Shown one piece after another: positions 14,539 through 64,000 of a stretch of DNA of 64,000 nucleotides. The DNA lies in IMG/VR virus record IMGVR_UViG_3300037488_001694, one strand, 5' to 3'. Within the stretch, counting starts at the first letter, position 1. Each line of letters begins with the position of its first letter. Position numbers and translations under genes: made by a program. Below the pieces are notes generated by a model that saw only the letters and a list, made by a program, of their open reading frames with translations, was not told the origin of the DNA and did not search any database. Source of the DNA: an uncultured virus (IMG/VR IMGVR_UViG_3300037488_001694). Its lineage: Duplodnaviria; Heunggongvirae; Uroviricota; Caudoviricetes.

Positions 14539-14568
14539 GTATTTGTTTGGCAAATTAAATATTATGTT

Positions 14569-20599: not shown

Positions 20600-20631
20600 G
20601 TTTTGTGATATATTTATAAATAAAAAATATT

Positions 20632-49939: not shown

Positions 49940-51736
49940 ATGGAAAAAGAATTAAATGTTATATCTGAAATTTCTAGAATGAGAGAAATGATGGGGTTTA
50001 ATAATGTTAATTATGGCACAAAAAAATATATACAAGAATCAATTTATGGTCATAATAAAACTATTTTAACTGAGGCTGTAGTTTTACCAAAAGATGAATG
50101 GTTATCAAAAGTATATAAAGCATTGACAGGTGATGATAATTATGGTGAAGTTTTTGGTAAATCCGTTTCCGATAACTGGGATGCGGCGGCTAGAGATGTT
50201 GCTGATGTTTTAGAAAGAGAAGGGTTAGACGATATAGGTAAATTAATGAATAATGTTGCAATTGCGAAAGGTCTTGACCCGTCTCAAGTAACTATTGAAA
50301 TGGTTGAAAATGCAATGAAAAAATATTTTAAATCAAATCCAGATGTTGCAGAAAAAATTCTTAAATCTTCGGCTGATTTCATAAACACATCATTAAGAGG
50401 AAAAGATTTTATTACAATAGTTGGAGCGGCAAATAATAATTTAGCTGATGATTTATCATATGTTCTTACAACTCCAATAACTAGTGCAAATTCAACAGTG
50501 TTACGTAATGAATTAGAACTTATCTCTCAAGATTTTAGAAATTCGGGATTAGACCTTAATGATCCGGCGGTAAAAGAAATTGCGGATGCGTTGGATAATT
50601 TATATAAAACCGCTGATACGATGATTGATCCCGCGAGTAAAATTCCAGAACCATCAGCAGATGCCGCAGTTATACCTAAAGATTCAATGTCAGGAGGAAA
50701 AACAAAGGCTGAATTAGATGCTGAGAATCAAGTAAATTCCCAAAGAGATGCTGAAGAAAGGGCAAGACAAGAAAATGAAGAATCTATTAGACAGTCTAAT
50801 GAGAATTTTGAAAAAATGAAAAATGAAAGTTTAGATCAATCAATTGATAAACTTAAGGCCGACGAAAACTGGACAAAGGCTTTTTCAATATGGTCTAAGT
50901 TGTTTAGTTATATAGGTATGGGGAACGTAGCAAACTACATTTCAAGAGCCGAGAAATCATTAGGGTCTCTACGGTTATATACTTATGACGATTTTATTTC
51001 GAGCCCTACATGGAAAAGTTTTCAGAAAGAATTAGAAACAAAGGCTACGGCAAGAGGTAAGAATAAAGGGGCTATCGCAAAAAATATTAAGGAATCCGGT
51101 GATATATTTGGAAGTTTGGGTGATGCATTCAGTAAAGTACCGGTTCTAGGTAGAATTGGTAGAGTGGTTGGAAGTATTGCTGTTGCCGCAGTTGCACTTT
51201 GGTTAATAGATAAATTAGTTGATTTCGGGGATATGGCCAAAAAACTTGGTGATTGGACTTGGAGTGTGGCACCGGAGGGGATCGTAAGTGATCCAAATGA
51301 AAATCGTGAATACTGTTTAAGACAATTAAACGGATACTATGAAATACCGGAAGGTGACAGATTTAAACTATTAAGTATTCCATTAGGTTGTGAAAATGCA
51401 GATGCCGAAAATTTTGATTTGTATGTTAGTAAAATTGAATACTTAAAAGGTGGTGTAGGAATGGATGCGGATGGTAATAAAGTTACCAAAAAGGATAGAT
51501 TTAAAGTAACTATTGGTAATGAGGTGAAAGAATTTGAAGTTGGATCTACAAATAATAACAATAAAACCACTGTAACATACGCTAACACACAAGCCGATTT
51601 TATTAAATGGGTAAATACAACACATCCAGGGAAATATGGAACAGAATATGAATGGGAAGGTAGTTCAGGATATTACTATCCTGGTGGTGGAGACGCAGGA
51701 AATGCGATGACATTTGATACATCTGGTTGGAAATAA
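49940..51736 (+). CDS. large tagged protein with coiled coil and TM helix
   Basis: EISRMREMMG...LTE tag; N-domain (GLDDIGKL...YFK.NP) shared with 45981. Confidence 0.85.
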   Translation: MEKELNVISEISRMREMMGFNNVNYGTKKYIQESIYGHNKTILTEAVVLPKDEWLSKVYKALTGDDNYGEVFGKSVSDNWDAAARDVADVLEREGLDDIGKLMNNVAIAKGLDPSQVTIEMVENAMKKYFKSNPDVAEKILKSSADFINTSLRGKDFITIVGAANNNLADDLSYVLTTPITSANSTVLRNELELISQDFRNSGLDLNDPAVKEIADALDNLYKTADTMIDPASKIPEPSADAAVIPKDSMSGGKTKAELDAENQVNSQRDAEERARQENEESIRQSNENFEKMKNESLDQSIDKLKADENWTKAFSIWSKLFSYIGMGNVANYISRAEKSLGSLRLYTYDDFISSPTWKSFQKELETKATARGKNKGAIAKNIKESGDIFGSLGDAFSKVPVLGRIGRVVGSIAVAAVALWLIDKLVDFGDMAKKLGDWTWSVAPEGIVSDPNENREYCLRQLNGYYEIPEGDRFKLLSIPLGCENADAENFDLYVSKIEYLKGGVGMDADGNKVTKKDRFKVTIGNEVKEFEVGSTNNNNKTTVTYANTQADFIKWVNTTHPGKYGTEYEWEGSSGYYYPGGGDAGNAMTFDTSGWK

Positions 51737-54471: not shown

Positions 54472-55083
54472 ATGAGAATAATAACATTTTATAACAACAT
54501 AATAAACCCAACAATTGTAAATTTACAAAAAAGAGTTTTTAATCATTTTGGTTACGATATAGATCAAATTAATGTAACTGATTGGGTTAGTCACGGAAAA
54601 TCTGTTGATGATTATTTGAGTGTAATAACAGATCCTAAAGAAATTATTGTCTTATTTGACATTGACTCAATTCCATTGAATACGACCATAATTAATGATG
54701 CCGTTAAATGGTGTTCGGAAAATATTGGAATTTATTCTGTTGCACAAAAAGCAGTTAAGTTAAAAAATCCAATAATACACGCAGCACCATCATTTATGGT
54801 TTTTAGTATTGAGACATTTAATATTTTGGGTAGACCAACCTTTACAACTAATGTTAGATCTGATTGTGGGGGTGAAATGACCCATTCCGCAAGAGATAAA
54901 GGTGTTGAAATAAGAATGTTATATCCATCTCATGTTGAGACCCCCCATAGTCAATTGGATGGACCAGTTATGTTTGGTTATGGAACAACTTATGGTCATC
55001 AATTATACCATGCTTTTGAATCAAGATTTAAAGCGAGAGACGGATACTTCATTAATAAGTGTAATTCAATATTGAATGGATAA
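54472..55083 (+). CDS. GT-A-like (DxD) protein
   Basis: HG..VD...IVLFDIDSIP; located within the GT cluster. Confidence 0.65.
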   Translation: MRIITFYNNIINPTIVNLQKRVFNHFGYDIDQINVTDWVSHGKSVDDYLSVITDPKEIIVLFDIDSIPLNTTIINDAVKWCSENIGIYSVAQKAVKLKNPIIHAAPSFMVFSIETFNILGRPTFTTNVRSDCGGEMTHSARDKGVEIRMLYPSHVETPHSQLDGPVMFGYGTTYGHQLYHAFESRFKARDGYFINKCNSILNG

Positions 55084-55774
55084 TATATATGATTTTTGTG
55101 TTATCATTACGACATATAATAGACCTAATATGTTGTATTCGTTAATAGAGAATCTTTTTAAAGAAAAAGGATCTTATAATATTCATATTGCTGTTTTTAA
55201 TGACGGTAGTAGTGAAAAATATGATTTAACAAATTATGATGTGAAACATATAAGAATGTACCCTAATATGGGAAAACAAAAATACTACGTAACATTTAAT
55301 TCAACTTTTAGTTACGTAAAAAGAATCAATTCAAAATATTTTATTTATCTTCCTGATGATGTGGGATTGGTGGATGATTTTTTTAATAAAGTAAAAGATA
55401 AATATGAGTTGATACCTGATCAAAACAAAATTTGTTTAAGTATTTTAACGGATGATAGAGTAAAAAGAAAGAATTGGGCGAATGTTTTGGCTCAAGATTT
55501 TGGGGATTATTATAAAACACAATGGAATGATTTGTGTTTTATATCGGAAAAAAAGTTTTTTGAAGTATTGAACTATAAACTTGAGGAAATCCCAAAAACA
55601 AGATGGGTTGGTAACCCCAATTTAAGTTCTGGTGTTGGTCAACAAATAACGGATAGGTTAAATAAACATAATTATGGTATGTTCCACACAAAATCATCTA
55701 TGGTGATTCATGGTGATCACGAATCTAAAATGAATAAAACCGAAAGATTAAAAACAAAATTAATAACTAAATAA
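55076..55774 (+). CDS. glycosyltransferase family 2
   Basis: VIITTYNRP, VFNDGS, YLPDD. Confidence 0.88.
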   Translation: MDNIYDFCVIITTYNRPNMLYSLIENLFKEKGSYNIHIAVFNDGSSEKYDLTNYDVKHIRMYPNMGKQKYYVTFNSTFSYVKRINSKYFIYLPDDVGLVDDFFNKVKDKYELIPDQNKICLSILTDDRVKRKNWANVLAQDFGDYYKTQWNDLCFISEKKFFEVLNYKLEEIPKTRWVGNPNLSSGVGQQITDRLNKHNYGMFHTKSSMVIHGDHESKMNKTERLKTKLITK

Positions 55775-57519
55775 TGGAAAAAAGAATAGTAAATGTTGCG
55801 TCCTATAATAGGATTGATTCGTTGGTGAGGTCTTTGGAATCAATATATGATCAATGTGATGAAATTAATGTATGTTTAAATAATCACAATGGTGAGATAC
55901 CTGATATTTTATATAGAGATAAAGTAAACTTATTCTTTACCGATAACTCAAAAGGGGATGCATTTAAATTCCTTATGCTTGAAGAAAGTAATGGGTATTT
56001 TTTAACAATAGATGATGACTTAATATACCCTGAAGGTTATGTTGACTATATGGTGAATAAATGTATTGAGCATGGTAATAAAAAAATCATAACACTACAC
56101 GGTAGAAGTTTTTCATCATTTCCAATAAATAGTTACTATAAATCGGCAAGTGAGAGATATGCTTGTTTAGAAAATGTTAAAAATGACGTAATCGTCCAAT
56201 TTGGGGGTACAGGAGTAATGTGTTTTCACACAAGTTTATTAAAAGTTTCAATTGATGATTTTTTATATCCAAATATGGCGGACATATGGATAGGTAAATT
56301 CGCAAAGCAAAGAAACATACCTATTTTATGTTTACAACATTCAAAAGGATATATTGGGTATATACATCAAAATACAACTATATTTAATGAACATTCAACA
56401 AATGATAGGGTTCAGACATTTGTGGTTAATAGATTATATGGTATTAATATTAAATACGATGTTTCCATTATTATCCCAACATTCCAAAATGTTAATTATA
56501 TTGATGATTGCTTAAAATCCATTGAGGTAGCAATGAAGAATCATATGTGTGAAATTTTAGTTGGTATAGACGGATGTAGAGAAACTTTAAACCATTTGAA
56601 GTCATCTAAAGTAAATCCATATACTTCTGTTTATTATTTTGAAATAAATGAAGGTCCGTATACAATAAAGAACACATTGGCCAATATTGCAAAATCAGAT
56701 AATTTAATCTTTTTTGATTCAGATGACTTAATGGGTGAAAATATGGTAGATTATGTAATGAAGTCATTAGATCGTTATGTTTGCGTAAAACCTAAAATGT
56801 ATAATTTTGATAATGAAACAAATAAACCAATATTAAATTTAAACACTCATGGTGAGGGTGTTTTCGCAATTAAAAAAGATTTATTCATCACAATGAATGG
56901 ATTTGAACCATGGATGTGTGCCGCGGATTCTGATTTTATGGGTAGGTTATATAAAAGAAAACCGGCAATTATAGGGTCCCCATCCCCACTATTCTCAAGA
57001 CGAATACATGACAATAGTTTGACAACCAGGAAAGAGACAGGTATGAGATCAGTAATGAGACACCAATATGCAAAAATATCAAAAAATAAAAAAGGACACG
57101 GTAATCCGAATATATTACACACAAGAGATTTTACACTAATTGACAATATTTCATTTTTTAGTGATTTTGATAATTTCCTACAAAGTGAAATGATGTTAAA
57201 GAAAAATAACGCTCAACTTTCAGTGTTGTCTATCTTATCTAAAGCACCAAGAAAAGTAGTTGAGAAAACGTTACCAAAAGAAAAAACTTCTATTGAGGTT
57301 GGTTATGATGCAATTAGTCATTTACTTAATAAACCACACCCTATGATCCCAAAACCTAAAGTTAATAATCAACCACCACCACAAAACAACCCTCAAGCAA
57401 TACCTCAACCACAGAAATCAAATTCAAATAGAGATACTTTACAAAAGTTATTTTTAAGAAAAACTCATAATAAAAGTGATGCTCCTTACATGAATATTGG
57501 GGGAAAATTAGGTAGATAG
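55774..57519 (+). CDS. two-domain glycosyltransferase
   Basis: N-domain LTIDDDLIYP/GGTG; C-domain VSIIIPT, GIDG, FFDSDD. Confidence 0.9.
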   Translation: MEKRIVNVASYNRIDSLVRSLESIYDQCDEINVCLNNHNGEIPDILYRDKVNLFFTDNSKGDAFKFLMLEESNGYFLTIDDDLIYPEGYVDYMVNKCIEHGNKKIITLHGRSFSSFPINSYYKSASERYACLENVKNDVIVQFGGTGVMCFHTSLLKVSIDDFLYPNMADIWIGKFAKQRNIPILCLQHSKGYIGYIHQNTTIFNEHSTNDRVQTFVVNRLYGINIKYDVSIIIPTFQNVNYIDDCLKSIEVAMKNHMCEILVGIDGCRETLNHLKSSKVNPYTSVYYFEINEGPYTIKNTLANIAKSDNLIFFDSDDLMGENMVDYVMKSLDRYVCVKPKMYNFDNETNKPILNLNTHGEGVFAIKKDLFITMNGFEPWMCAADSDFMGRLYKRKPAIIGSPSPLFSRRIHDNSLTTRKETGMRSVMRHQYAKISKNKKGHGNPNILHTRDFTLIDNISFFSDFDNFLQSEMMLKKNNAQLSVLSILSKAPRKVVEKTLPKEKTSIEVGYDAISHLLNKPHPMIPKPKVNNQPPPQNNPQAIPQPQKSNSNRDTLQKLFLRKTHNKSDAPYMNIGGKLGR

Positions 57520-57556
57520 ATTTGACTTAACGATTAATTATTTTTATAATTGAATT

Positions 57557-57733
57557 ATGTATGTAATAGTTAAACACGTAAAGACGAACAATAACAGAAT
57601 TTTACCTGTTATTATGTTAGACACCCAAGGTGAGCTATGGGAGTTTGATAATAAAGATAAAGCACAGGAAATGGCTAACATCTTCAACACTAATACCGAT
57701 TCGGGACATAAATACGAAGTTAAGAAGGTATAA
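57557..57733 (+). CDS. small hypothetical protein (58 aa), not in ORF track
   Basis: MYVIVKHVK...LPVIMLDTQGELWEF...YEVKKV; TTGACT-N18-TATAAT upstream. Confidence 0.75.
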   Translation: MYVIVKHVKTNNNRILPVIMLDTQGELWEFDNKDKAQEMANIFNTNTDSGHKYEVKKV

Positions 57734-57740
57734 ATAATAT

Positions 57741-57814
57741 GGTCCGCTAGCTCAGCTGGATAGAGCAACTGCCTTCTAAGCAGTAGGTCTCAGGTTCGAA
57801 TCCTGAGCGGATCA
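57741..57814 (+). tRNA. tRNA-Arg(TCT)
   Basis: Canonical cloverleaf; anticodon loop CT-TCT-AA. Confidence 0.95.
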
Positions 57815-57944
57815 CTAATAATAATGTTATGGATATTTTTGAAGAATTACATAACGAATTCATTAATTCTGAAGATTATGTCTGTTATTTAGTTGAGATT
57901 AATGAATACCGTTACGATTTATAATAACATGATATTTATTATAT

Positions 57945-58412
57945 ATGGAACTTAATGAAGAGATATATAGAATAAAATCATTACTAAAAGAAAATTCTGA
58001 CCCTTATAAAATTAGGGTTGTAAGTAATATAGAGAGTGATAGAGGATTTTGCGTATATTATTTAACAGAAAATAATGATGTTATAGGTGTTGTGACTTTA
58101 ACCGATCTAAATAAAGTTTTATCTAATAATGAGTTTAATGAAGACATAAAAGTTTTACATGAAAATTACGATAACTCAAAAGATACAGTTTATATACACT
58201 CAATTGTTGTTGAATCTCCGTTTAGAAAACAAGGATTTGGTACAAAATTAATAAAGGAATGTGAAACTATTGCAAGAAATTCTGGTTATAAGTACATAAC
58301 TGCAATTGTTAAAAAAAACAATATACCATCTCAAACCATGCTTGATAAATTAGGTTATAACAAATATAATTCTAACGATAAGAAAGATTTATTTATTTTA
58401 GACATTGACTAA
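57945..58412 (+). CDS. tagged GNAT acetyltransferase
   Basis: MELNEEIYRIKSLLKE tag; V...FRKQGFGTKL, N..S....KLGY. Confidence 0.88.
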   Translation: MELNEEIYRIKSLLKENSDPYKIRVVSNIESDRGFCVYYLTENNDVIGVVTLTDLNKVLSNNEFNEDIKVLHENYDNSKDTVYIHSIVVESPFRKQGFGTKLIKECETIARNSGYKYITAIVKKNNIPSQTMLDKLGYNKYNSNDKKDLFILDID

Positions 58413-58464
58413 ATGGTCTTTTTTAATTATTAATTACACAGAAATAAACAAATAATCACAAAAA

Positions 58465-59094
58465 ATGGAATTATTAAAATCGTTAGAGTGGAGATACGCC
58501 ACCAAGAAGATGAATGGGGATAAAGTCCCACAAGATAAATTAGAAAGAATTTTGGAAGCAACAAGATTGGCTCCAAGTTCTTATGGGTTAACACCATATC
58601 ACGTAATTGTTGTTGAGGATCAAAAATTAAAAGAAGAATTACAAGGGGCGTGTTACGGACAAACTCAATTAAGTGAATCATCAGCAGTATTGGTATTTGC
58701 TACATGGGATAATATTACAGATGAGTCAGTAGATATTTACATCCAGGAGACGGCAAACCAAAGAGGGATCAGTACTGATATGTTAGGTGAGTTCAGTGGT
58801 ATGATCAAAGGATCTTTATCTAATATGACGCAAGATCAAAAAATTGCTTGGGCACAGAGACAAGCATACATCGGATTAGGATTTGCATTAGTTGCAGCAG
58901 CAACAGAAGAAGTGGATTCAACTCCAATGGAAGGATTTGTTCCATCATCAGTGGATACAGTATTAGGATTAGAAGAATTAGGATTAAAATCAGTTGTAGT
59001 TCTTCCATTAGGATATAGAGACACTGAAAATGATTATTTAGCGTCTTTAAAGAAAGTAAGATGGGAAAATGAGAAATTTTTCATTAAAAAATAA
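58465..59094 (+). CDS. nitroreductase (NfsB-like NAD(P)H-flavin oxidoreductase)
   Basis: WRYATKK, APSSYGL.P, DSTPMEGF, LGYR, KVR. Confidence 0.93.
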   Translation: MELLKSLEWRYATKKMNGDKVPQDKLERILEATRLAPSSYGLTPYHVIVVEDQKLKEELQGACYGQTQLSESSAVLVFATWDNITDESVDIYIQETANQRGISTDMLGEFSGMIKGSLSNMTQDQKIAWAQRQAYIGLGFALVAAATEEVDSTPMEGFVPSSVDTVLGLEELGLKSVVVLPLGYRDTENDYLASLKKVRWENEKFFIKK

Positions 59095-59124
59095 AAAAAC
59101 ACTTGTCAATTAAAAATAAATTCC

Positions 59125-59172
59125 TAAATTTGTACAAGAATTAAAACTTTTAGGAAAACTGATATATTTATA
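59125..59172 (+). promoter_or_regulatory. tandem promoters for tRNA array 1 leader
   Basis: TAAATTTG (59125-59132) and TATTTATA (59165-59172). Confidence 0.6.
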
Positions 59173-59183
59173 ACAAAACAAAA

Positions 59184-59294
59184 ATGAAAGCAACTAATAA
59201 ACATATGGTCATTTGTAATCCGAGCACACAGTGGTCGTTTAATAGCTATAGAACGCTTCGTTCACATATTAGGGCATTTTCATTTATGAGTTGA
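59184..59294 (+). CDS. putative attenuator leader peptide 1 (36 aa)
   Basis: MKATNKHMVICNPSTQWSFNSYRTLRSHIRAFSFMS; A-rich initiation context; ends 31 nt before a terminator. Confidence 0.75.
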   Translation: MKATNKHMVICNPSTQWSFNSYRTLRSHIRAFSFMS

Positions 59295-59325
59295 TACAGA
59301 TTAACTAAAAATATAAAAGGAATAT

Positions 59326-59359
59326 AAGACCCGAACTCAAATCAAGTTCGGGTTTTTTT
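59326..59359 (+). terminator. intrinsic terminator (attenuator 1)
   Basis: acccgaact/agttcgggt stem plus T-run, immediately before the first tRNA. Confidence 0.9.
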
Positions 59360-59373
59360 ATACCCAAAAAATC

Positions 59374-59445
59374 GGTCTCTTAGTATAGTTGGTAATATCC
59401 CGGCTTTGTAACCCGGAGTCATCAGTTCGAACCTGATAGAGACCT
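59374..59445 (+). tRNA. tRNA with TGT anticodon (Thr), C31.C39 mismatch
   Basis: ggtctct/agagacc acceptor; loop TT-TGT-AA; T-loop TTCGAAC. Confidence 0.8.
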
Positions 59446-59456
59446 CAAAAGAAAAA

Positions 59457-59469
59457 GTTCTTTGACATA
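59457..59469 (+). promoter_or_regulatory. rrn boxA-like antitermination site
   Basis: GTTCTTTGACATA; identical copy at 63288-63300. Confidence 0.75.
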
Positions 59470-59481
59470 TTGGCCTTAAAT

Positions 59482-59552
59482 TGTCTCGTAGCCTAAAGGC
59501 AGGGCATCGGATTTTGGCTCCGAGTGTGTTGGTTCGAGTCCAGCCGAGACAA
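59482..59552 (+). tRNA. tRNA-Gln(TTG)
   Basis: U1-A72 acceptor; loop TT-TTG-GC. Confidence 0.92.
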
Positions 59553-59559
59553 CAATAAT

Positions 59560-59643
59560 GGAAGAGTAATCACAACGGCTTGTGATCCCGTCTTGAAAAC
59601 GGCGAGTACTGAAAGGTATGGGGATCGACACCTCACTCTTCCG
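59560..59643 (+). tRNA. tRNA-Ser(TGA)
   Basis: Long variable arm; loop CT-TGA-AA; G73. Confidence 0.88.
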
Positions 59644-59652
59644 CATTAATAA

Positions 59653-59727
59653 CGGGATGTGGACTAATTGGTAAGTCACCACTTTTGGGAAGTGGGCATC
59701 ATCCAGGTTCGAGTCCTGGTATCCCGA
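59653..59727 (+). tRNA. tRNA-Pro(TGG)
   Basis: C1-G72; loop TT-TGG-GA. Confidence 0.95.
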
Positions 59728-59732
59728 CTAAC

Positions 59733-59808
59733 GTCTTCGTAGCTCAGTTGGTTTCAGAGCACTCCGCTTTTAACGGAGGGGTCACAGGTTCGAACCCTGT
59801 CGGGGACA
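59733..59808 (+). tRNA. tRNA-Lys(TTT)
   Basis: Loop CT-TTT-AA. Confidence 0.93.
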
Positions 59809-59814
59809 CAATAA

Positions 59815-59888
59815 GCACTCTTAGCTCAGATGGTAGTAGCGGTTGTTTTACATACAACAGGTCACAGGTTCGATCCCTGTAGAGTGTA
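59815..59888 (+). tRNA. tRNA-Val(TAC)
   Basis: Loop TT-TAC-AT. Confidence 0.93.
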
Positions 59889-59893
59889 CAAAA

Positions 59894-59963
59894 GGGAGTA
59901 TCGGCAGGGTCCTGATCGTGTCTGTAAAACATCGTCTTGGTGGTTCGATTCCATCTGCTCCCA
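59894..59963 (+). tRNA. non-canonical tRNA with GTA anticodon (Tyr-like)
   Basis: gggagta/tgctccc acceptor, T-arm, loop CT-GTA-AA; aberrant D-arm, no long V-arm. Confidence 0.7.
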
Positions 59964-59972
59964 CAACAAAAT

Positions 59973-60044
59973 GGACTGGTAGCTCAGAGGTAGAGCAGGG
60001 AGCTGTTAACTCCAAGGTCATAGGTTCGATCCCTATCCTGTCCG
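59973..60044 (+). tRNA. tRNA-Asn(GTT)
   Basis: Loop CT-GTT-AA; G73. Confidence 0.92.
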
Positions 60045-60049
60045 CAACC

Positions 60050-60123
60050 GCTCATATAGCTCAATTGGTGAGAGCGCCGACCTGATACGTCGGAGGTTAT
60101 AGGTTCGAGTCCTGTTATGAGCA
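60050..60123 (+). tRNA. tRNA-Ile(GAT)
   Basis: Loop CT-GAT-AC. Confidence 0.94.
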
Positions 60124-60127
60124 CAAT

Positions 60128-60216
60128 GGAAAGTAATCCCTGAAGGCGACGGGACTTGTTTGCTAAACAATGTGATCGGTGAGAAACCGATTGTGGATCG
60201 TTACCACTGCTTTCCT
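60128..60216 (+). tRNA. tRNA-Ser(GCT)
   Basis: Long variable arm; loop TT-GCT-AA; atypical T-loop. Confidence 0.85.
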
Positions 60217-60222
60217 CAACAA

Positions 60223-60290
60223 CCCGTATGATCAGGGATCAAAGTTGGCTCATATCCGACTTTAGAGTGGTTCGATACCACTATACGGGA
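60223..60290 (+). tRNA. short non-canonical tRNA with CAT anticodon (Met or Ile2)
   Basis: 68 nt; cccgtat/atacggg acceptor; loop CT-CAT-AT; minimal D-arm. Confidence 0.72.
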
Positions 60291-60297
60291 CTTATAT

Positions 60298-60371
60298 GGT
60301 GTATGTAGCTCAGTTGGCAGAGTGCTTGATTGTGATTCAAGAGGTCATGGGTTCGACCCCCATCATACACA
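60298..60371 (+). tRNA. tRNA-His(GTG)
   Basis: Encoded G-1; loop TT-GTG-AT. Confidence 0.92.
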
Positions 60372-60372
60372 C

Positions 60373-60501
60373 AAATAGTTTACAACGGACAAGGCTTAGG
60401 CAAGTGAGTTGAGAATGAGTCGTAGGAGATATAATCGTTTGTACTACAAAAAGTTTGATACAAGAGATTGGTGGGATGCGAGTGGTTGACCAAAACTATT
60501 T
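60373..60501 (+). ncRNA. candidate structured ncRNA A
   Basis: 9-bp closing stem aaatagttt/aaactattt filling the His-Arg spacer. Confidence 0.5.
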
Positions 60502-60503
60502 AT

Positions 60504-60576
60504 GTCCTCGTAGTTCAATGGAAGAGAACCTGTGGCTACGGACCACAAGATGGGAGTTCGAATCTCTCCGAGGATA
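60504..60576 (+). tRNA. tRNA-Arg(ACG)
   Basis: Loop CT-ACG-GA. Confidence 0.94.
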
Positions 60577-60577
60577 C

Positions 60578-60732
60578 AAAAGATGATACAAGGCGTAGAA
60601 TGACAGACGTGGAGAGACGTGTCGCAAGGGTACACACTAAGGATAAGTAATAATGCTCAACTCTCTTATGGTGTGTGAAGCGTCGTAGAAATACGAATCC
60701 CAGATTCCTGATAAAGTCATTTATCATCTTTT
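60578..60732 (+). ncRNA. candidate structured ncRNA B
   Basis: 11-bp closing stem aaaagatgata/tatcatctttt; inner aatgac/gtcatt and acacac/gtgtgt. Confidence 0.65.
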
Positions 60733-60736
60733 ATTT

Positions 60737-60808
60737 GCCCCTTTCGTATAACGGAAGTACAACGCTCTTCTAAGGCGTCAGGTCGGAGTTCGAATCTCTG
60801 AGGGGGTA
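60737..60808 (+). tRNA. tRNA-Arg(TCT), second divergent copy
   Basis: Loop CT-TCT-AA. Confidence 0.9.
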
Positions 60809-60871
60809 CTAAACTAAAAAATGCTCAATAAACAAGGTTAGTTTATCGTAGCAAAAATAGGTTTATTATAC

Positions 60872-60942
60872 GCGTCTCTGGTGTAACGGTAGCATGATGG
60901 ATTCCAAACCCATCGGTCAGGGTTCGAAACCTTGGGGGCGCG
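60872..60942 (+). tRNA. tRNA-Trp(CCA)
   Basis: Loop TT-CCA-AA; G73; A31.C39 mismatch. Confidence 0.92.
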
Positions 60943-60987
60943 CAAATTAAATTTGGTAGATTGAAAATAAATTTGTATCTTTGTCTT

Positions 60988-61491
60988 ATGAAAACAAATT
61001 TACCATACTGTTCAAATAACGTTGGAATCATTGGTTATCAGGATTCCGAAATTGCGAAAAAAGAAAAAAACGATTGTGTTGTGAGAGCATTTGCGTCGTC
61101 ATTTGAAATCCCTTATGATAAGGCGCACAAATACGTTAAAGAAAAATTTGGGAGAAAGGATTATTGTGGTACTTATGGTACCGTTTTTAAAATGGTTGAG
61201 TTGGCAAAAAAACAAACTCAAATAAACCATAAGAAGATTAAACCAATTGGGACTTCCAAAACGATAAGTAATCACAAAGTTTATACGTTAGATTATACGG
61301 TTAAAGTAAAAGGTAAAAAGGTTAATAGACAAATGACCGTTGGGACATTTATAAAAGAAAACCCAATTGGAACATTTTTTGTGTTAGTTTGTGGTCACGC
61401 TTTTACCATTAAAGATGGGATCGTACATGGTAATTATGAAGATTCAACCAAAAAGAGAAAAATTATGAAACACGCATTTCAAATTAAATAA
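60988..61491 (+). CDS. hypothetical phage protein (NDCVVRA...H motif)
   Basis: Start reassigned to MKTNL, after TATCTTTG (60976-60983). Confidence 0.85.
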   Translation: MKTNLPYCSNNVGIIGYQDSEIAKKEKNDCVVRAFASSFEIPYDKAHKYVKEKFGRKDYCGTYGTVFKMVELAKKQTQINHKKIKPIGTSKTISNHKVYTLDYTVKVKGKKVNRQMTVGTFIKENPIGTFFVLVCGHAFTIKDGIVHGNYEDSTKKRKIMKHAFQIK

Positions 61492-61564
61492 GGACTGGTA
61501 GCTCAGTTGGTAGAGCGTTGGATTGAAGATCCAAGCGTCGGGGGTTCGACTCCCTCCCGGTCCA
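61492..61564 (+). tRNA. tRNA-Phe(GAA)
   Basis: Loop TT-GAA-GA. Confidence 0.95.
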
Positions 61565-61579
61565 CAAAAACCAAATAAT

Positions 61580-62032
61580 ATGAACAGAGTATTTAGAACG
61601 GTACAAGGCGAATCGGTAGATGTGGTATCTCACACCTTGGATGTTTTAAACGAATGTCCATATGTTGAGGTTCATATTGGAACGGATTCACAGAACCACA
61701 GAAGAAGTACGGTATACGTTACCGTAATTGCTTACCGATATGGTAACAGAGGTGTTCATTACATCTTACATAAACAAAAAATAAAAAAAATTAAGGATAA
61801 GTGGACGAGATTATGGAATGAAGCTGACTATTCTATTGAGGTTGCGGAATGGTTAACCAAAAAGGTGAAGGTTCAAGTTGAAATTGACTTGGATTACAAT
61901 AGTCAGGAAAAACACTTCAGTTCAAAACTTGTTCCTCCTGTTGTTGGGTGGGCAACGTCTCTTGGTTACAAGACAAACATTAAACCTGACAATCAAATAG
62001 CAACTAAAGCGGCAGATCATCACTGCCGTTAA
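61580..62032 (+). CDS. RNase H-like YkuK (DUF458) family protein
   Basis: IGTDSQ...RLWNEA..S...IDLDYN...KP...A...AD; start reassigned to MNRVF. Confidence 0.85.
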   Translation: MNRVFRTVQGESVDVVSHTLDVLNECPYVEVHIGTDSQNHRRSTVYVTVIAYRYGNRGVHYILHKQKIKKIKDKWTRLWNEADYSIEVAEWLTKKVKVQVEIDLDYNSQEKHFSSKLVPPVVGWATSLGYKTNIKPDNQIATKAADHHCR

Positions 62033-62033
62033 T

Positions 62034-62105
62034 GGTCCTATGGCCGAGAGATTTAGGCGCCGGTCTGCAAAACCGGTCAGATTGGTTTGATTCCAATTAG
62101 GACCT
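62034..62105 (+). tRNA. tRNA-Cys(GCA)
   Basis: Loop CT-GCA-AA; U73. Confidence 0.92.
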
Positions 62106-62114
62106 CAACAAAAT

Positions 62115-62188
62115 GCCCTCATGGCGGAATAGGTATACGCGTGTGATTTAGGATCACAATTTTACAGGTTCGAGTCCTGTTGGGGGTA
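62115..62188 (+). tRNA. tRNA-Leu(TAG) lacking long variable arm
   Basis: Loop TT-TAG-GA; 5-nt variable loop. Confidence 0.9.
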
Positions 62189-62203
62189 CAAATAAAGGTA
62201 AAT

Positions 62204-62542
62204 ATGTTAAGAGAATTTAAATTCTATAAAGACGAGGGGACGTGGTATGTGGATCTGCCCGAATGGGAAGGAAGTCGGGCAGATCTGGCAATGGTATCAG
62301 GTGCCGATATAATGTTAGATATTGTATCTCAGGGTGAAAACGATATTAAAGTTTTATTGTCAACAGAAGATTTTGATGGATCCAATAGATTAGAATTTTT
62401 AAGAGAAGCCCCTGAAGTTGGTGAAGGATCTTGGTATTTAATGAAAACATATAAGGGTATTGAATATAATTTGGAACTATGGTTATGTGATGTAACTATA
62501 TTTGTATTTGGGGGATTTCCTAAAAATATTTACATATCATAA
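62204..62542 (+). CDS. hypothetical protein (DUF6717-like)
   Basis: WYVDLP...MVSGAD..LD...WLC.V..FVFG.FP..IY. Confidence 0.8.
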   Translation: MLREFKFYKDEGTWYVDLPEWEGSRADLAMVSGADIMLDIVSQGENDIKVLLSTEDFDGSNRLEFLREAPEVGEGSWYLMKTYKGIEYNLELWLCDVTIFVFGGFPKNIYIS

Positions 62543-62555
62543 CATATTTATTGAT

Positions 62556-63011
62556 ATGAAAAAAATAGTTAGATTAACAGAATCAGATTTAATTCGTTTA
62601 GTTAAACGAGTTGTTAAAGAAAATGAGGATGGATCCAAACCAGACATTTTAACTTACCTCAACGATAACTTCACACCAGACGGTGGATGGGATAATGAAA
62701 AATTCCAAGATGGTTGGATGAATGGTGAACTTACCGCTTATTATGTAAATGGTAAATTAGCATTTATTTATAACACTGAATTTGATGACGATGGTGGAGA
62801 GAGGGAATTTAATACATTAGTTGTTGGTCCTGAGGTATATGAAAAAATTAAGGAAATGTTTGGTAAAGGAGAATGGAAAGAAAGATTTACTAATTGGTTT
62901 AAAGGAAATACTCGTTTAAACGTTGATGATGTTGAAATGGACGACTTTAAAGGTATCTTTTCTGACTATGTAGATCCTTCTTGGGCTGATGACGAAAATT
63001 GGGATTATTAA
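62556..63011 (+). CDS. tagged acidic protein
   Basis: Start reassigned to MKKIVRLTESDLIRLVKRVVKE. Confidence 0.88.
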   Translation: MKKIVRLTESDLIRLVKRVVKENEDGSKPDILTYLNDNFTPDGGWDNEKFQDGWMNGELTAYYVNGKLAFIYNTEFDDDGGEREFNTLVVGPEVYEKIKEMFGKGEWKERFTNWFKGNTRLNVDDVEMDDFKGIFSDYVDPSWADDENWDY

Positions 63012-63080
63012 AAATAAAATAAAAAACTTGACACTTTCAAAAAGTATCATATATTTATAACAAAACATTAAAAAACGCAA

Positions 63081-63149
63081 ATGAAAAATTTACACATATT
63101 ATTGATAGGCGCGGATTTAGCTGAGACAACCTTCAAGGAGATGGTGTAA
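63081..63149 (+). CDS. putative attenuator leader peptide 2 (22 aa)
   Basis: MKNLHILLIGADLAETTFKEMV; preceded by TATTTATA (63052-63059); its 3' end is complementary to the terminator arm. Confidence 0.75.
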   Translation: MKNLHILLIGADLAETTFKEMV

Positions 63150-63170
63150 ATTTTTGTATATATGAAATTT

Positions 63171-63201
63171 AAAACCCATCTCCAAAAGAGGTGGGTTTTT
63201 T
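63171..63201 (+). terminator. intrinsic terminator (attenuator 2)
   Basis: aaaacccatctc/gaggtgggtttt stem plus T-run. Confidence 0.9.
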
Positions 63202-63262
63202 GATTTTATAAGTTTTTTTAAAAATATTTTACAAAGTGTTTGTCGGATTGAAAAATTCTACT

Positions 63263-63270
63263 TATCTTTG
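63263..63270 (+). promoter_or_regulatory. Bacteroidota -7 element TATCTTTG before tRNA array 2
   Basis: Matches TAnnTTTG; TTTG about 20 nt upstream. Confidence 0.65.
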
Positions 63271-63287
63271 TGGAACAAAAGAAAAAG

Positions 63288-63300
63288 GTTCTTTGACATA
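63288..63300 (+). promoter_or_regulatory. rrn boxA-like antitermination site
   Basis: GTTCTTTGACATA, 12 nt before the first tRNA. Confidence 0.75.
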
Positions 63301-63312
63301 ATGGTAAAAAAT

Positions 63313-63392
63313 GGTTCGGTGGTGAAATTGGTATACACGCTGCGTTTAAGCCGCAGTCCATACGGTTGTGGGTTCGAGTCCCACCCGGACTA
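63313..63392 (+). tRNA. tRNA-Leu(TAA)
   Basis: Loop TT-TAA-GC; variable arm present. Confidence 0.93.
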
Positions 63393-63401
63393 CAAATATA
63401 T

Positions 63402-63474
63402 AGCGGGATGTGGAAGATGGTTATCCGCTGGGTCTCATAAGCCTAGATCGCAGGTTCGAATCCTGCTCCCGCAA
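63402..63474 (+). tRNA. tRNA-Met(CAT), initiator-like
   Basis: A1.A72 mismatch; loop CT-CAT-AA. Confidence 0.88.
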
Positions 63475-63505
63475 CTAAAGAGTAAAACTTTTTATTCTTA
63501 AAAAT

Positions 63506-63644
63506 TTGATAGTGGTTTTCCCCACTCAACGGATGTCGACAATCCAGAGTGGAATCGGAATTCAGCACCCTTTCTGCCGAGGCCTCGTAAAACTACGATT
63601 AAGCAGTTAAGATTGGAGCGAGACGGGTACTCCATCACTATCAA
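63506..63644 (+). ncRNA. candidate structured ncRNA C
   Basis: Closing stem ttgatagtg/cactatcaa; inner ccactc/gagtgg and tggag/ctcca. Confidence 0.6.
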
Positions 63645-63653
63645 CAAAATTAT

Positions 63654-63734
63654 GCTGACGTACCAGTGGATGCTTATATCATCTATGCCTGTAGTGGTAA
63701 GTTTAAAACGTTGGTTCGAATCCAACCGTCAGTA
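63654..63734 (+). tRNA. tRNA-like RNA with TAT anticodon loop and rearranged body
   Basis: gctgacg/cgtcagt acceptor, perfect T-arm, ggatg-CTTATAT-catct arm, no D-arm. Confidence 0.6.
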
Positions 63735-63740
63735 CAATAA

Positions 63741-63813
63741 GCGGGAGTAGCTCAGTTGGTAGAGCTATAGCCTTCCAAGCTATAGGTCGCGAGTTCGAAT
63801 CTCGTCTCCCGCT
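63741..63813 (+). tRNA. tRNA-Gly(TCC)
   Basis: Loop CT-TCC-AA; U73. Confidence 0.96.
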
Positions 63814-63815
63814 CT

Positions 63816-63936
63816 AAACAATTAGTCGTACAAGGGCAACGCGAATACAGATAAGGGATACTACTCCACCTAATGGAAGCGGCCGATACATCCATAGGTC
63901 TACGAAGCCGATCGTAGTTGAGCCTACTAATTGTTT
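63816..63936 (+). ncRNA. candidate structured ncRNA D
   Basis: 11-bp closing stem aaacaattagt/actaattgttt; inner ctacga/tcgtag. Confidence 0.6.
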
Positions 63937-63941
63937 TTTAT

Positions 63942-64000
63942 GGGCCTGATGCCAACGGCAGGTCGACTGATTTGCAATCAGATCGTTTGGGTTCGATTCC
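63942..64000 (+). tRNA. tRNA-Ala(TGC), truncated by window end
   Basis: G3; loop TT-TGC-AA; T-loop TTCGATT. Confidence 0.85.

Follow-up and report, generated by a model that had tools for sequence, protein, structure and literature searches.

Organization of the leader, terminator and tRNA array

The window analyzed here is a 64,000-nt stretch of DNA from an uncultivated virus of the class Caudoviricetes (IMG/VR record IMGVR_UViG_3300037488_001694). It is AT-rich, with a G+C content of ~30%, and carries 20 tRNA genes between positions 57741 and 63814, all of them on the + strand. The element under study, at 59184-59359, lies immediately upstream of one run of these genes, array 1. It comprises a 36-codon open reading frame (ORF) on the + strand (59184-59294; MKATNKHMVICNPSTQWSFNSYRTLRSHIRAFSFMS; TGA stop codon at 59292-59294), hereafter the leader, and an intrinsic terminator on the same strand (59326-59359), with a G+C-rich stem formed by 59326-59337 and 59345-59356, a CAAAUCA loop and a T-run at 59353-59359. 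tRNA-Thr(UGU) (59374-59446, + strand) is the first gene 3' of the terminator. An initial annotation had described the element as an attenuator whose array appears to depend on read-through. The coordinates, the sequence and the pairings that it named for 59184-59359 are all present in the sequence, and the 14-nt gap in which it saw no promoter motif, from the end of the T-run at 59359 to the start of tRNA-Thr at 59374, indeed holds no TAnnTTTG motif. On balance, the sequence evidence presented below leads us to favor reading this copy as a functional ribosome-mediated (leader-peptide) transcription attenuator in front of a phage tRNA array.

The sole promoter-like element upstream of array 1 is of the Bacteroidota type and lies at 59103-59132 on the + strand (TTG, 19 nt, TAAATTTG); it is kept in all 22 aligned relatives. 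The underlying pattern, TTG-N18-20-TAnnTTTG, which we take to be the Bacteroidota promoter consensus, occurs 12 times on the + strand, compared with 1.9 ± 1.3 times in 200 shuffles, and from 59133 to 60947 the + strand contains no TAnnTTTG (-7) motif. Promoter patterns are also found at 14547, 16016, 16561, 19764, 35450, 60953 and 63240, and in several of them only 2-4 nt separate the pattern from an ATG, suggesting leaderless or near-leaderless mRNAs. Closer to the leader, the motif TATATTTATAA (59163-59173, + strand) is placed 11 nt 5' of the leader ATG and is likewise kept in relatives. Six exact copies of ATATATTTATAA are present, all on the + strand (20608, 22150, 24056, 49916, 59162 and 63049), and allowing at most one mismatch yields 20 matches against 5.8 expected. 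The exact copies stand 11-21 nt before an ATG, including that of a 598-aa ORF at 49940, and those at 20608 and 24056 lie directly behind a terminator. The TATATTTATAA/ATATATTTATAA element is a candidate phage-specific promoter or translation signal.

Conservation of the leader frame and its rare codons

Relatives of the window were found among IMG/VR viral contigs, which reach 413 kb in length. Homologues were retrieved by means of an array-encoded protein and DNA patterns, giving a first set of 26 unique sequences and an alignment (A2) of 41, and scans of viral and metagenome sequences brought the window-type leader to at least 173 loci, which collapse to at least 98 unique modules. One search pattern, ATTTTCAYTTATGAGTT, was discarded as too loose, with 29 true homologues among at least 120 matches listed. 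The ORF was compared in the 25 relatives that include its start, one start-truncated sequence being left out. In all 25, the ORF is intact, spans 34-36 aa, begins with ATGAAA and shares its end position, and every insertion or deletion is a multiple of three. Even in the most divergent type, L038, the frame is kept despite low nucleotide identity. Variable columns at codon positions 1, 2 and 3 number 17, 17 and 18, respectively (without L038), and the relatives' ORFs show exchanges of AGA for CGT, both encoding Arg, as well as R/K exchanges.

Every codon that the initial annotation had named as uncommon is present in the leader and is rare compared with genes. Per 1,000 codons of the 53 long ORFs in the window, GTC is used 2.4 times, CCG 3.2, AGC 1.3, CAG 4.2, TCG 3.5, and ACG and AGG 4.7 times each. 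The codon adaptation index (CAI) of the leader is 0.516, compared with 0.699 ± 0.086 for 1,023 gene windows of 35 codons each, placing it in the lower 2.6%, and its three NCG codons compare with a gene-window mean of 0.61, three or more being found in 2.5% of the windows. These codons are largely frozen in relatives: CCG is retained in 25/25, TCG, ACG and AGG in 24/25 each (ACG giving way to ACA once) and CAG in 21/25, and favored synonyms never replace the rare codons of the leader. In-frame indels and frozen rare codons together argue that the frame is under selection, and likewise the RNA sequence or the choice of codons.

The terminator and the competing RNA folds

The terminator alone has a computed folding energy of -15.4 kcal/mol. 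In relatives, 94% of its alignment cells are paired, three pairs show compensatory changes (49 cells), and its covariation score of 0.32 (versus 0.137) is reached in none of 500 shuffles; arm variants include CCCGAAC/GTTCGGG, CCCGAGA/TCTCGGG and CCCAAGG/CCTTGGG. A consensus terminator scan lists the hairpin under the - strand only, the + strand stem and T7 being plain in the sequence and the folds. The distance from stop codon to terminator is 32-35 nt in the clade of the window and 24-35 nt across all leader types. A second hairpin spans the stop codon (59289-59306, + strand; AGUUGAU-ACAG-AUUAACU). On its own, it folds with -4.1 kcal/mol; 90.7% of its cells are paired and three of its pairs change on both sides, and the L038 type builds an analogous hairpin from a different sequence.

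The stop-codon hairpin forms the apex of a larger alternative fold. The alternative hairpin proposed in the initial annotation (AGTTGA/TTAACT, TTTAT/ATAAA and GGG/CCC) is recovered as the minimum free energy (MFE) fold of 59269-59335, with -9.8 kcal/mol. Of its proposed TTAGGG/CCCGAA pairing, GGG:CCC and TT:AA do pair, but an A·G mismatch separates them. A further pairing, TGAGTT with AACTCA, matches perfectly over 6 bp in the window, but its AACTCA side is lost in relatives, and we rejected it because the 3' partner is unconserved.

Three segments on the + strand define the competing structures. Region 1 covers the start codon (59181-59192; AAAUGAAA), region 2 the last codons of the ORF (59272-59288; GGGCAUUUUCAUUUAUG), and region 3 (59312-59332) the linker AUAAA..GGAAUAUAAG together with the base of the terminator 5' arm (G59328 and CCC 59330-59332); region 2 can pair with either of the other two. 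The pairing of region 1 with UUUCAUUU of region 2, near the ORF end, has 96.2% of cells paired compared with at most 61% when the partner is slid, and shows little covariation (MFE folds, RNAalifold). To follow the pairing of regions 2 and 3, each homologue was folded as a partial transcript from the last nine codons through the 5' arm of the terminator. In every one, GGG[C/U]AUUUUCAUUUAUG of region 2 pairs with AUAAA..GGAAU[A/G]UAA[G/A]ACCC of region 3, at energies of -7 to -11 kcal/mol and with 3-8 nt of the terminator 5' arm paired. The register chosen (A) has 92.2% of cells paired, compared with at most 60% when the partner is slid; an alternative register B (85.4%) and the register of the L038 type (74.1%) fit the clade of the window worse and were rejected. 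The pair 59275:59328, adjoining the invariant GGG:CCC, is C-G in 67 of the 98 unique modules compared and U-A in the other 31, and is never mismatched. Both of its states are found on three shared terminator-arm types, and a tree computed without these positions requires four changes of state, of which two fall on supported branches. The non-coding linker (59312-59329) is conserved to the same degree as the ORF. Region 2 ends 4 nt 5' of the stop codon, and the geometry fits the attenuator model: with the ribosome footprint sizes that we assume, a ribosome at the stop codon would cover the 5' strand of the antiterminator and not the terminator.

The whole leader (59170-59373) folds with an MFE of -44.9 kcal/mol (z -5.0), and none of 200 shuffles folds as well. 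Such stability would also be expected of a structured small RNA of ~180-220 nt ending at the terminator, serving in tRNA maturation or as a regulator, with the ORF incidental or a second function. In keeping with this, variation is spread evenly over codon positions, blocks are invariant at the nucleotide level, and the final fold holds the start codon in a paired segment. However, the z-score is partly due to the terminator, the internal helices are nearly devoid of covariation, and Rfam searches of 55000-64000 at E<=1 return only tRNAs and three sub-threshold chance matches, with no leader family and no small RNA family. In addition, the exclusively in-frame indels and the intact ORFs, including that of the low-identity L038 type, are left unaccounted for, and the AGA-to-CGT and R/K exchanges indicate selection on amino acids. 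We therefore regard a small RNA as an improbable explanation.

Other leader types and the second module of the window

An 18-mer behind tRNA-Thr (59457-59474; described below) served as a handle on the array that is independent of the leader, and it retrieved 78 viral loci. Upstream of it stand further modules of a small ORF and a terminator, whose peptides are 28-51 aa long, very different, and unrelated between leader types. At least eight other leader types were found in uncultivated viral and freshwater contigs. Six loci (L171, L173, L195, L201, L205 and L241) combine ORF, terminator and boxA-like motif in front of arrays that begin with Lys, Gln or Cys. All 48 leaders, attenuator 2 left out, fall in the lowest 5% of gene windows for favored codons, a poverty that non-genic ORFs share. 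Nearly all leader peptides, whatever their type, contain one Trp.

In 16 of 18 unique modules of the other types, which are unrelated in sequence or only distantly so, the 3' end of the ORF is strongly complementary to the 5' arm of the terminator (dG -10 to -22 kcal/mol, p<=0.05 versus shuffles), with complements such as ACUCGGG/CCCGAGU, UCCGAGG/CCUCGGA and GUCUUUCAUUU/AAAUGAAAGAC. Between the complementary segment and the stop codon lie 4-16 nt, except in three modules (L207, L237 and L241) where the segment reaches or enters the stop codon. In contrast, among 38 ordinary gene-terminator pairs (genes of at least 80 aa, from the window and 46 loci), only three are complementary, and the median z is -0.02; taking all 45 leader modules, 16 of which are significant, against these 38 pairs gives a Fisher p of 0.0025. 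The L038 type, which is alignable with that of the window, has an antiterminator of 10-11 bp, so that the clade of the window seems to descend, in weakened form, from a clear switch.

The window contains a second module, attenuator 2 (63081-63205, + strand), with a 22-aa ORF (MKNLHILLIGADLAETTFKEMV; 63081-63149) and a terminator at 63171-63199. The initial annotation had judged the pairing at the first module to be the weaker of the two, and the computed duplexes bear this out: -5.8 kcal/mol (z 0.02) for module 1 versus -15.0 kcal/mol (z -3.8) for attenuator 2. Unlike module 1, attenuator 2 is followed by a promoter-like element (63240-63270) and then a boxA-like motif before tRNA-Leu. For the family of leader types as a whole, we hold a working attenuator to be more probable than for this particular copy.

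A boxA-like element within the tRNA array

The 18-mer used as a handle, GTTCTTTGACATATTGGC (59457-59474, + strand), ends 7 nt before tRNA-Gln, and a second copy at 63288-63305 likewise ends 7 nt before a tRNA. Bacterial genomes, mostly those of Bacteroidota, carry the identical 18-mer in 93 stretches; 20 of these were scanned, and in 10 the motif precedes 23S rRNA by 26-107 nt, with a tRNA upstream in seven of these ten. The motif resembles what we take to be the boxA consensus, and its identity to the Bacteroidota 16S-23S spacer motif suggests a boxA-like antitermination element borrowed by the phage and points to a Bacteroidota host. Since boxA works in nascent RNA, its presence implies a transcription start upstream; and since it stands 3' of the terminator, the polymerase would meet the terminator unmodified and become processive only afterwards. 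A promoter function of GTTCTTTGACATATTGGC was set aside: the motif is downstream of the promoter at 63240-63270 and inside host rRNA spacers, and it lies within an RNA-library contig that starts upstream of it.

tRNA-Thr(UGU) is the first tRNA behind every MKT-type leader examined. The rest of array 1 (59482-60943, + strand) encodes tRNAs for Gln, probable Ser-UGA, Pro, Lys, Val, Tyr, Asn, Ile, Ser-GCU, His, Arg, Arg and Trp, with no internal promoter motif. The probable tRNA-Ser(UGA) (59560-59644, + strand) is called by neither ARAGORN nor Rfam. At loci L188 and L204, ARAGORN calls a tRNA-Ser(UGA) gene in the corresponding place of the array; the sequence in the window aligns with these genes, shares their anticodon loop, and is deeply covered in RNA-library contigs of run X20.

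Weighing the proposed attenuator against other explanations

Several observations weigh against a working attenuator in this copy. As to the leader, 168 off-frame or antisense ORFs have an equally low CAI (mean 0.494; 58% at or below 0.517), so that the rare-codon richness asserted in the initial annotation, real in comparison with genes, scores the same as in non-genic ORFs. The NCG count alone is unusual against this set (4.2% have three or more), and the invariance of particular rare codons is more telling than their richness. Unlike classical attenuators, the leader contains no tandem run of one regulatory codon; its Thr codons are at positions 4, 15 and 24, and its rare codons are scattered. 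The peptide is partly conserved (H7, P, W, Y, T, R, FS and M), and the peptide itself may have a function.

As to the fold, the direct duplex between ORF end and terminator 5' arm has a p of 0.45 in the window, and none of 27 unique modules of its clade reaches p<=0.05 in the direct complementarity test. By partition function, 3.8 of 10 arm bases are paired compared with 2.3 in shuffles (p 0.15), and the MFE of the alternative fold, -9.8 kcal/mol, compares with -9.0 in shuffles (p 0.36). Covariation between regions 2 and 3 comes from the single pair 59275:59328, with two to four events, too few for a sign test to reach significance; GGG:CCC and UUUC:GGAA are invariant and therefore uninformative either way. 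Imposing GGG:CCC on the full transcript raises its energy by 13.9 kcal/mol (-28.5 versus -42.4), and the alternative fold removes only ~5 nt at the foot of the terminator stem. The alternative state contemplated in the initial annotation is kept in relatives, but its stability falls 14 kcal/mol short of that of the terminator state. The antiterminators of classical attenuators are likewise weaker than their terminators. In this clade, the 'on' fold appears weak, and the switch may be leaky or mostly 'off'. Overall, the architecture inferred in that annotation, of leader, terminator, alternative fold and promoterless array, is real and conserved, but in this clade the fold itself is no better than in shuffles.

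These points also favor an alternative in which the leader is no more than an ordinary gene for a small protein, served by a promoter of its own and closed by an ordinary, somewhat leaky terminator, the array being transcribed by constitutive read-through or from an unrecognised promoter, and the pairing of regions 2 and 3 being incidental in AU-rich RNA. The shuffle comparisons and the missing codon run agree with it, as do peptide positions common to the window and L038 types and the TATATTTATAA motif that precedes the ORF, as it does real genes. However, it leaves unexplained why the synonymous sites of rare codons are frozen, why the linker is conserved like the ORF, why 59275 and 59328 change jointly, and why the other leader types have strong ORF-end antiterminators where ordinary genes rarely do. 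Moreover, peptides are unrelated between leader types, and neither Pfam nor PHROGs gives a family for the 36-aa peptide. We consider an ordinary gene rather unlikely, though the most serious of the competing explanations.

Contigs assembled from RNA libraries bear on the terminator itself. One (X17) spans 59199-59439, from the leader into tRNA-Thr, and another from a different study (X19) joins 59292 to 59374 and continues to 59513; parts of the stretch are without cover in X15, X19 and X20. The two bridging contigs are only a weak hint of read-through past the terminator, because RNA contigs reveal neither transcript ends nor strand and may derive from carried-over DNA. That such contigs cross the hairpin would also suit a different role for it: hairpin and U-run could mainly be a processing or stability element, delimiting the pre-tRNA transcript on its 5' side or the leader mRNA on its 3' side, and be passed by a polymerase already resistant to termination, for which the boxA-like antitermination element in the same transcription unit might be cited. 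But the boxA-like element lies 3' of the hairpin, where the polymerase would still be unmodified; rrn-type antitermination, as we understand it, acts on Rho-dependent and not on intrinsic terminators; and the covarying stem with its U-run has the canonical form of a terminator. A processing element is therefore the least probable explanation, and a very improbable one.

Proposed mechanism and candidate signal

Under the attenuator that we favor, in which both the switch itself and the sensed signal are inferred, transcription would begin from the Bacteroidota-type promoter (59103-59132), with the TATATTTATAA element as a possible further start, and a ribosome would translate the 36-codon leader. 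A ribosome keeping pace to the stop codon would cover region 2 and melt the stop-codon hairpin; with region 2 covered, the terminator at 59326-59359 would form and the transcript would end ~14 nt before tRNA-Thr. If the ribosome lagged on CCG, CAG, UCG, ACG or AGG, region 2 would be free to pair with region 3, which would remove G59328 and CCC 59330-59332 from the terminator stem and allow read-through into tRNA-Thr. The boxA-like element at 59457-59474 would then recruit host Nus factors, carrying the polymerase through the untranslated array. If translation were absent, region 1 would pair with region 2 and termination would prevail.

As for the signal, ACG, CAG, UCG and CCG are codons of the first four tRNAs of the array, Thr-UGU, Gln-UUG, probable Ser-UGA and Pro-UGG. 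This raises the possibility, which we put forward tentatively, of a self-regulating sensor of tRNA supply, in which the rare G-ending codons of the leader monitor the array's own decoders. A shortage of these decoders, whether of phage or host origin, would make the ribosome lag and the terminator be bypassed, and a boxA-loaded polymerase would transcribe the array; such a shortage could arise late in infection or under a tRNA-cleaving host defence. On the same tentative footing, the unrelated leader peptides would have evolved for one and the same switch in different phages. Because the match of codons to tRNAs was drawn post hoc, from an array in which most amino acids are represented, we retain this only as a bold reading. 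A narrower, Thr-specific sensor, suggested by tRNA-Thr(UGU) behind MKT leaders and by the retention of ACG, was rejected, since the leader lacks a Thr run and the arrays behind other leader types start with Cys, Lys or Gln.

Genomic setting

DNA runs containing the stretch come mainly from lake water, sediment and wastewater metagenomes. Among isolated phages, blastn gave tRNA matches only (288 records, none covering 80% of the query), and the leader pattern had no match in bacterial and archaeal genomes. Upstream of the leader, the window encodes a nitroreductase (Pfam). At 27 loci with relatives of this gene, the leader and an adjacent array are absent, with tRNAs, in an upstream position, at L026 only; synteny with the nitroreductase gene is thus no guide. 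Gene order around the leader is mosaic: the neighboring nitroreductase gene of the window sits elsewhere in related genomes (L001-L027), and at another locus (L036, 5001-5869) the leader is directly behind a 176-aa array protein. Amid the array are genes for a PHROG 3754 protein (60961-61491) with its own promoter-like site, an RNaseH-like protein (PF04308; 61523-62032) and a DUF6717 protein (62180-62542). Between tRNA-Ser(GCU) and tRNA-His, an 81-nt gap (60218-60298) ends in CCCGTAT...ATACGGG and is called by neither ARAGORN nor Rfam; it may be another non-canonical tRNA-like gene.

Comparison with known systems

The closest architectural counterparts are the trp, his, leu, thr and pheA attenuators of Enterobacteria, which likewise place a short leader ORF and an intrinsic terminator before the genes that they regulate; trp-type leader-peptide attenuators have been described in Bacteroidota too. 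In the trp, his and leu type, as proposed here, a segment at the ORF end can pair either upstream or with the 5' arm of the terminator, and a ribosome at the stop codon would cover that segment. Unlike them, the present module precedes tRNAs and not biosynthetic enzymes, has scattered conserved rare codons in place of a tandem run, matches no Rfam leader, and has in this clade a weak antiterminator that takes the stem base only. The boxA-like element recalls rrn boxA antitermination (NusB/NusE, NusA, NusG and SuhB) and lambda nut, in that it comes early in a long operon that is not translated; it differs in belonging to a phage tRNA array behind a leader-terminator module, with Nus binding putative. 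If this role is correct, phages have borrowed rRNA antitermination for an untranslated operon of their own.

Phage tRNA arrays are usually regarded as constitutive cargo. The tRNA cluster of phage T4 is served by upstream promoters and transcribed together with small RNAs, and we know of no leader ORF or terminator switch there. Nor, to our knowledge, do leader-peptide attenuators control tRNA genes elsewhere; no attenuator before tRNA genes was found in the full-text literature, subscription-only papers lying outside its coverage. Were tRNA supply indeed the signal, this would be the first attenuator known for tRNA genes. A translated leader and a terminator ahead of such arrays would imply that phages adjust their output of tRNAs to how translation is actually proceeding. 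As the number of window-type loci attests, the element is common. Such a module would offer a compact, portable means of sensing translation speed in Bacteroidota, and it would explain a class of small ORFs overlooked by gene callers.

T-box riboswitches are alike in that a tRNA-related signal chooses between terminator and antiterminator. They differ in having no leader ORF and in regulating genes for aminoacyl-tRNA synthetases, amino-acid biosynthesis and transporters, not tRNAs; the Rfam T-box model (specifier loop, T-box sequence) has no match in 55000-64000 at E<=1. The nearest functional parallel is cellular and not viral: the long tRNA array (L-array) of Anabaena sp. PCC 7120 is normally silent and is induced upon impairment of translation (PMC8421152). 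There, control is placed at the promoter, and the words attenuator, leader and terminator are absent from the text (PMC8421152). The L-array follows the physiological logic that we propose for the phage array, in which normally silent tRNA genes would be transcribed when translation falters.

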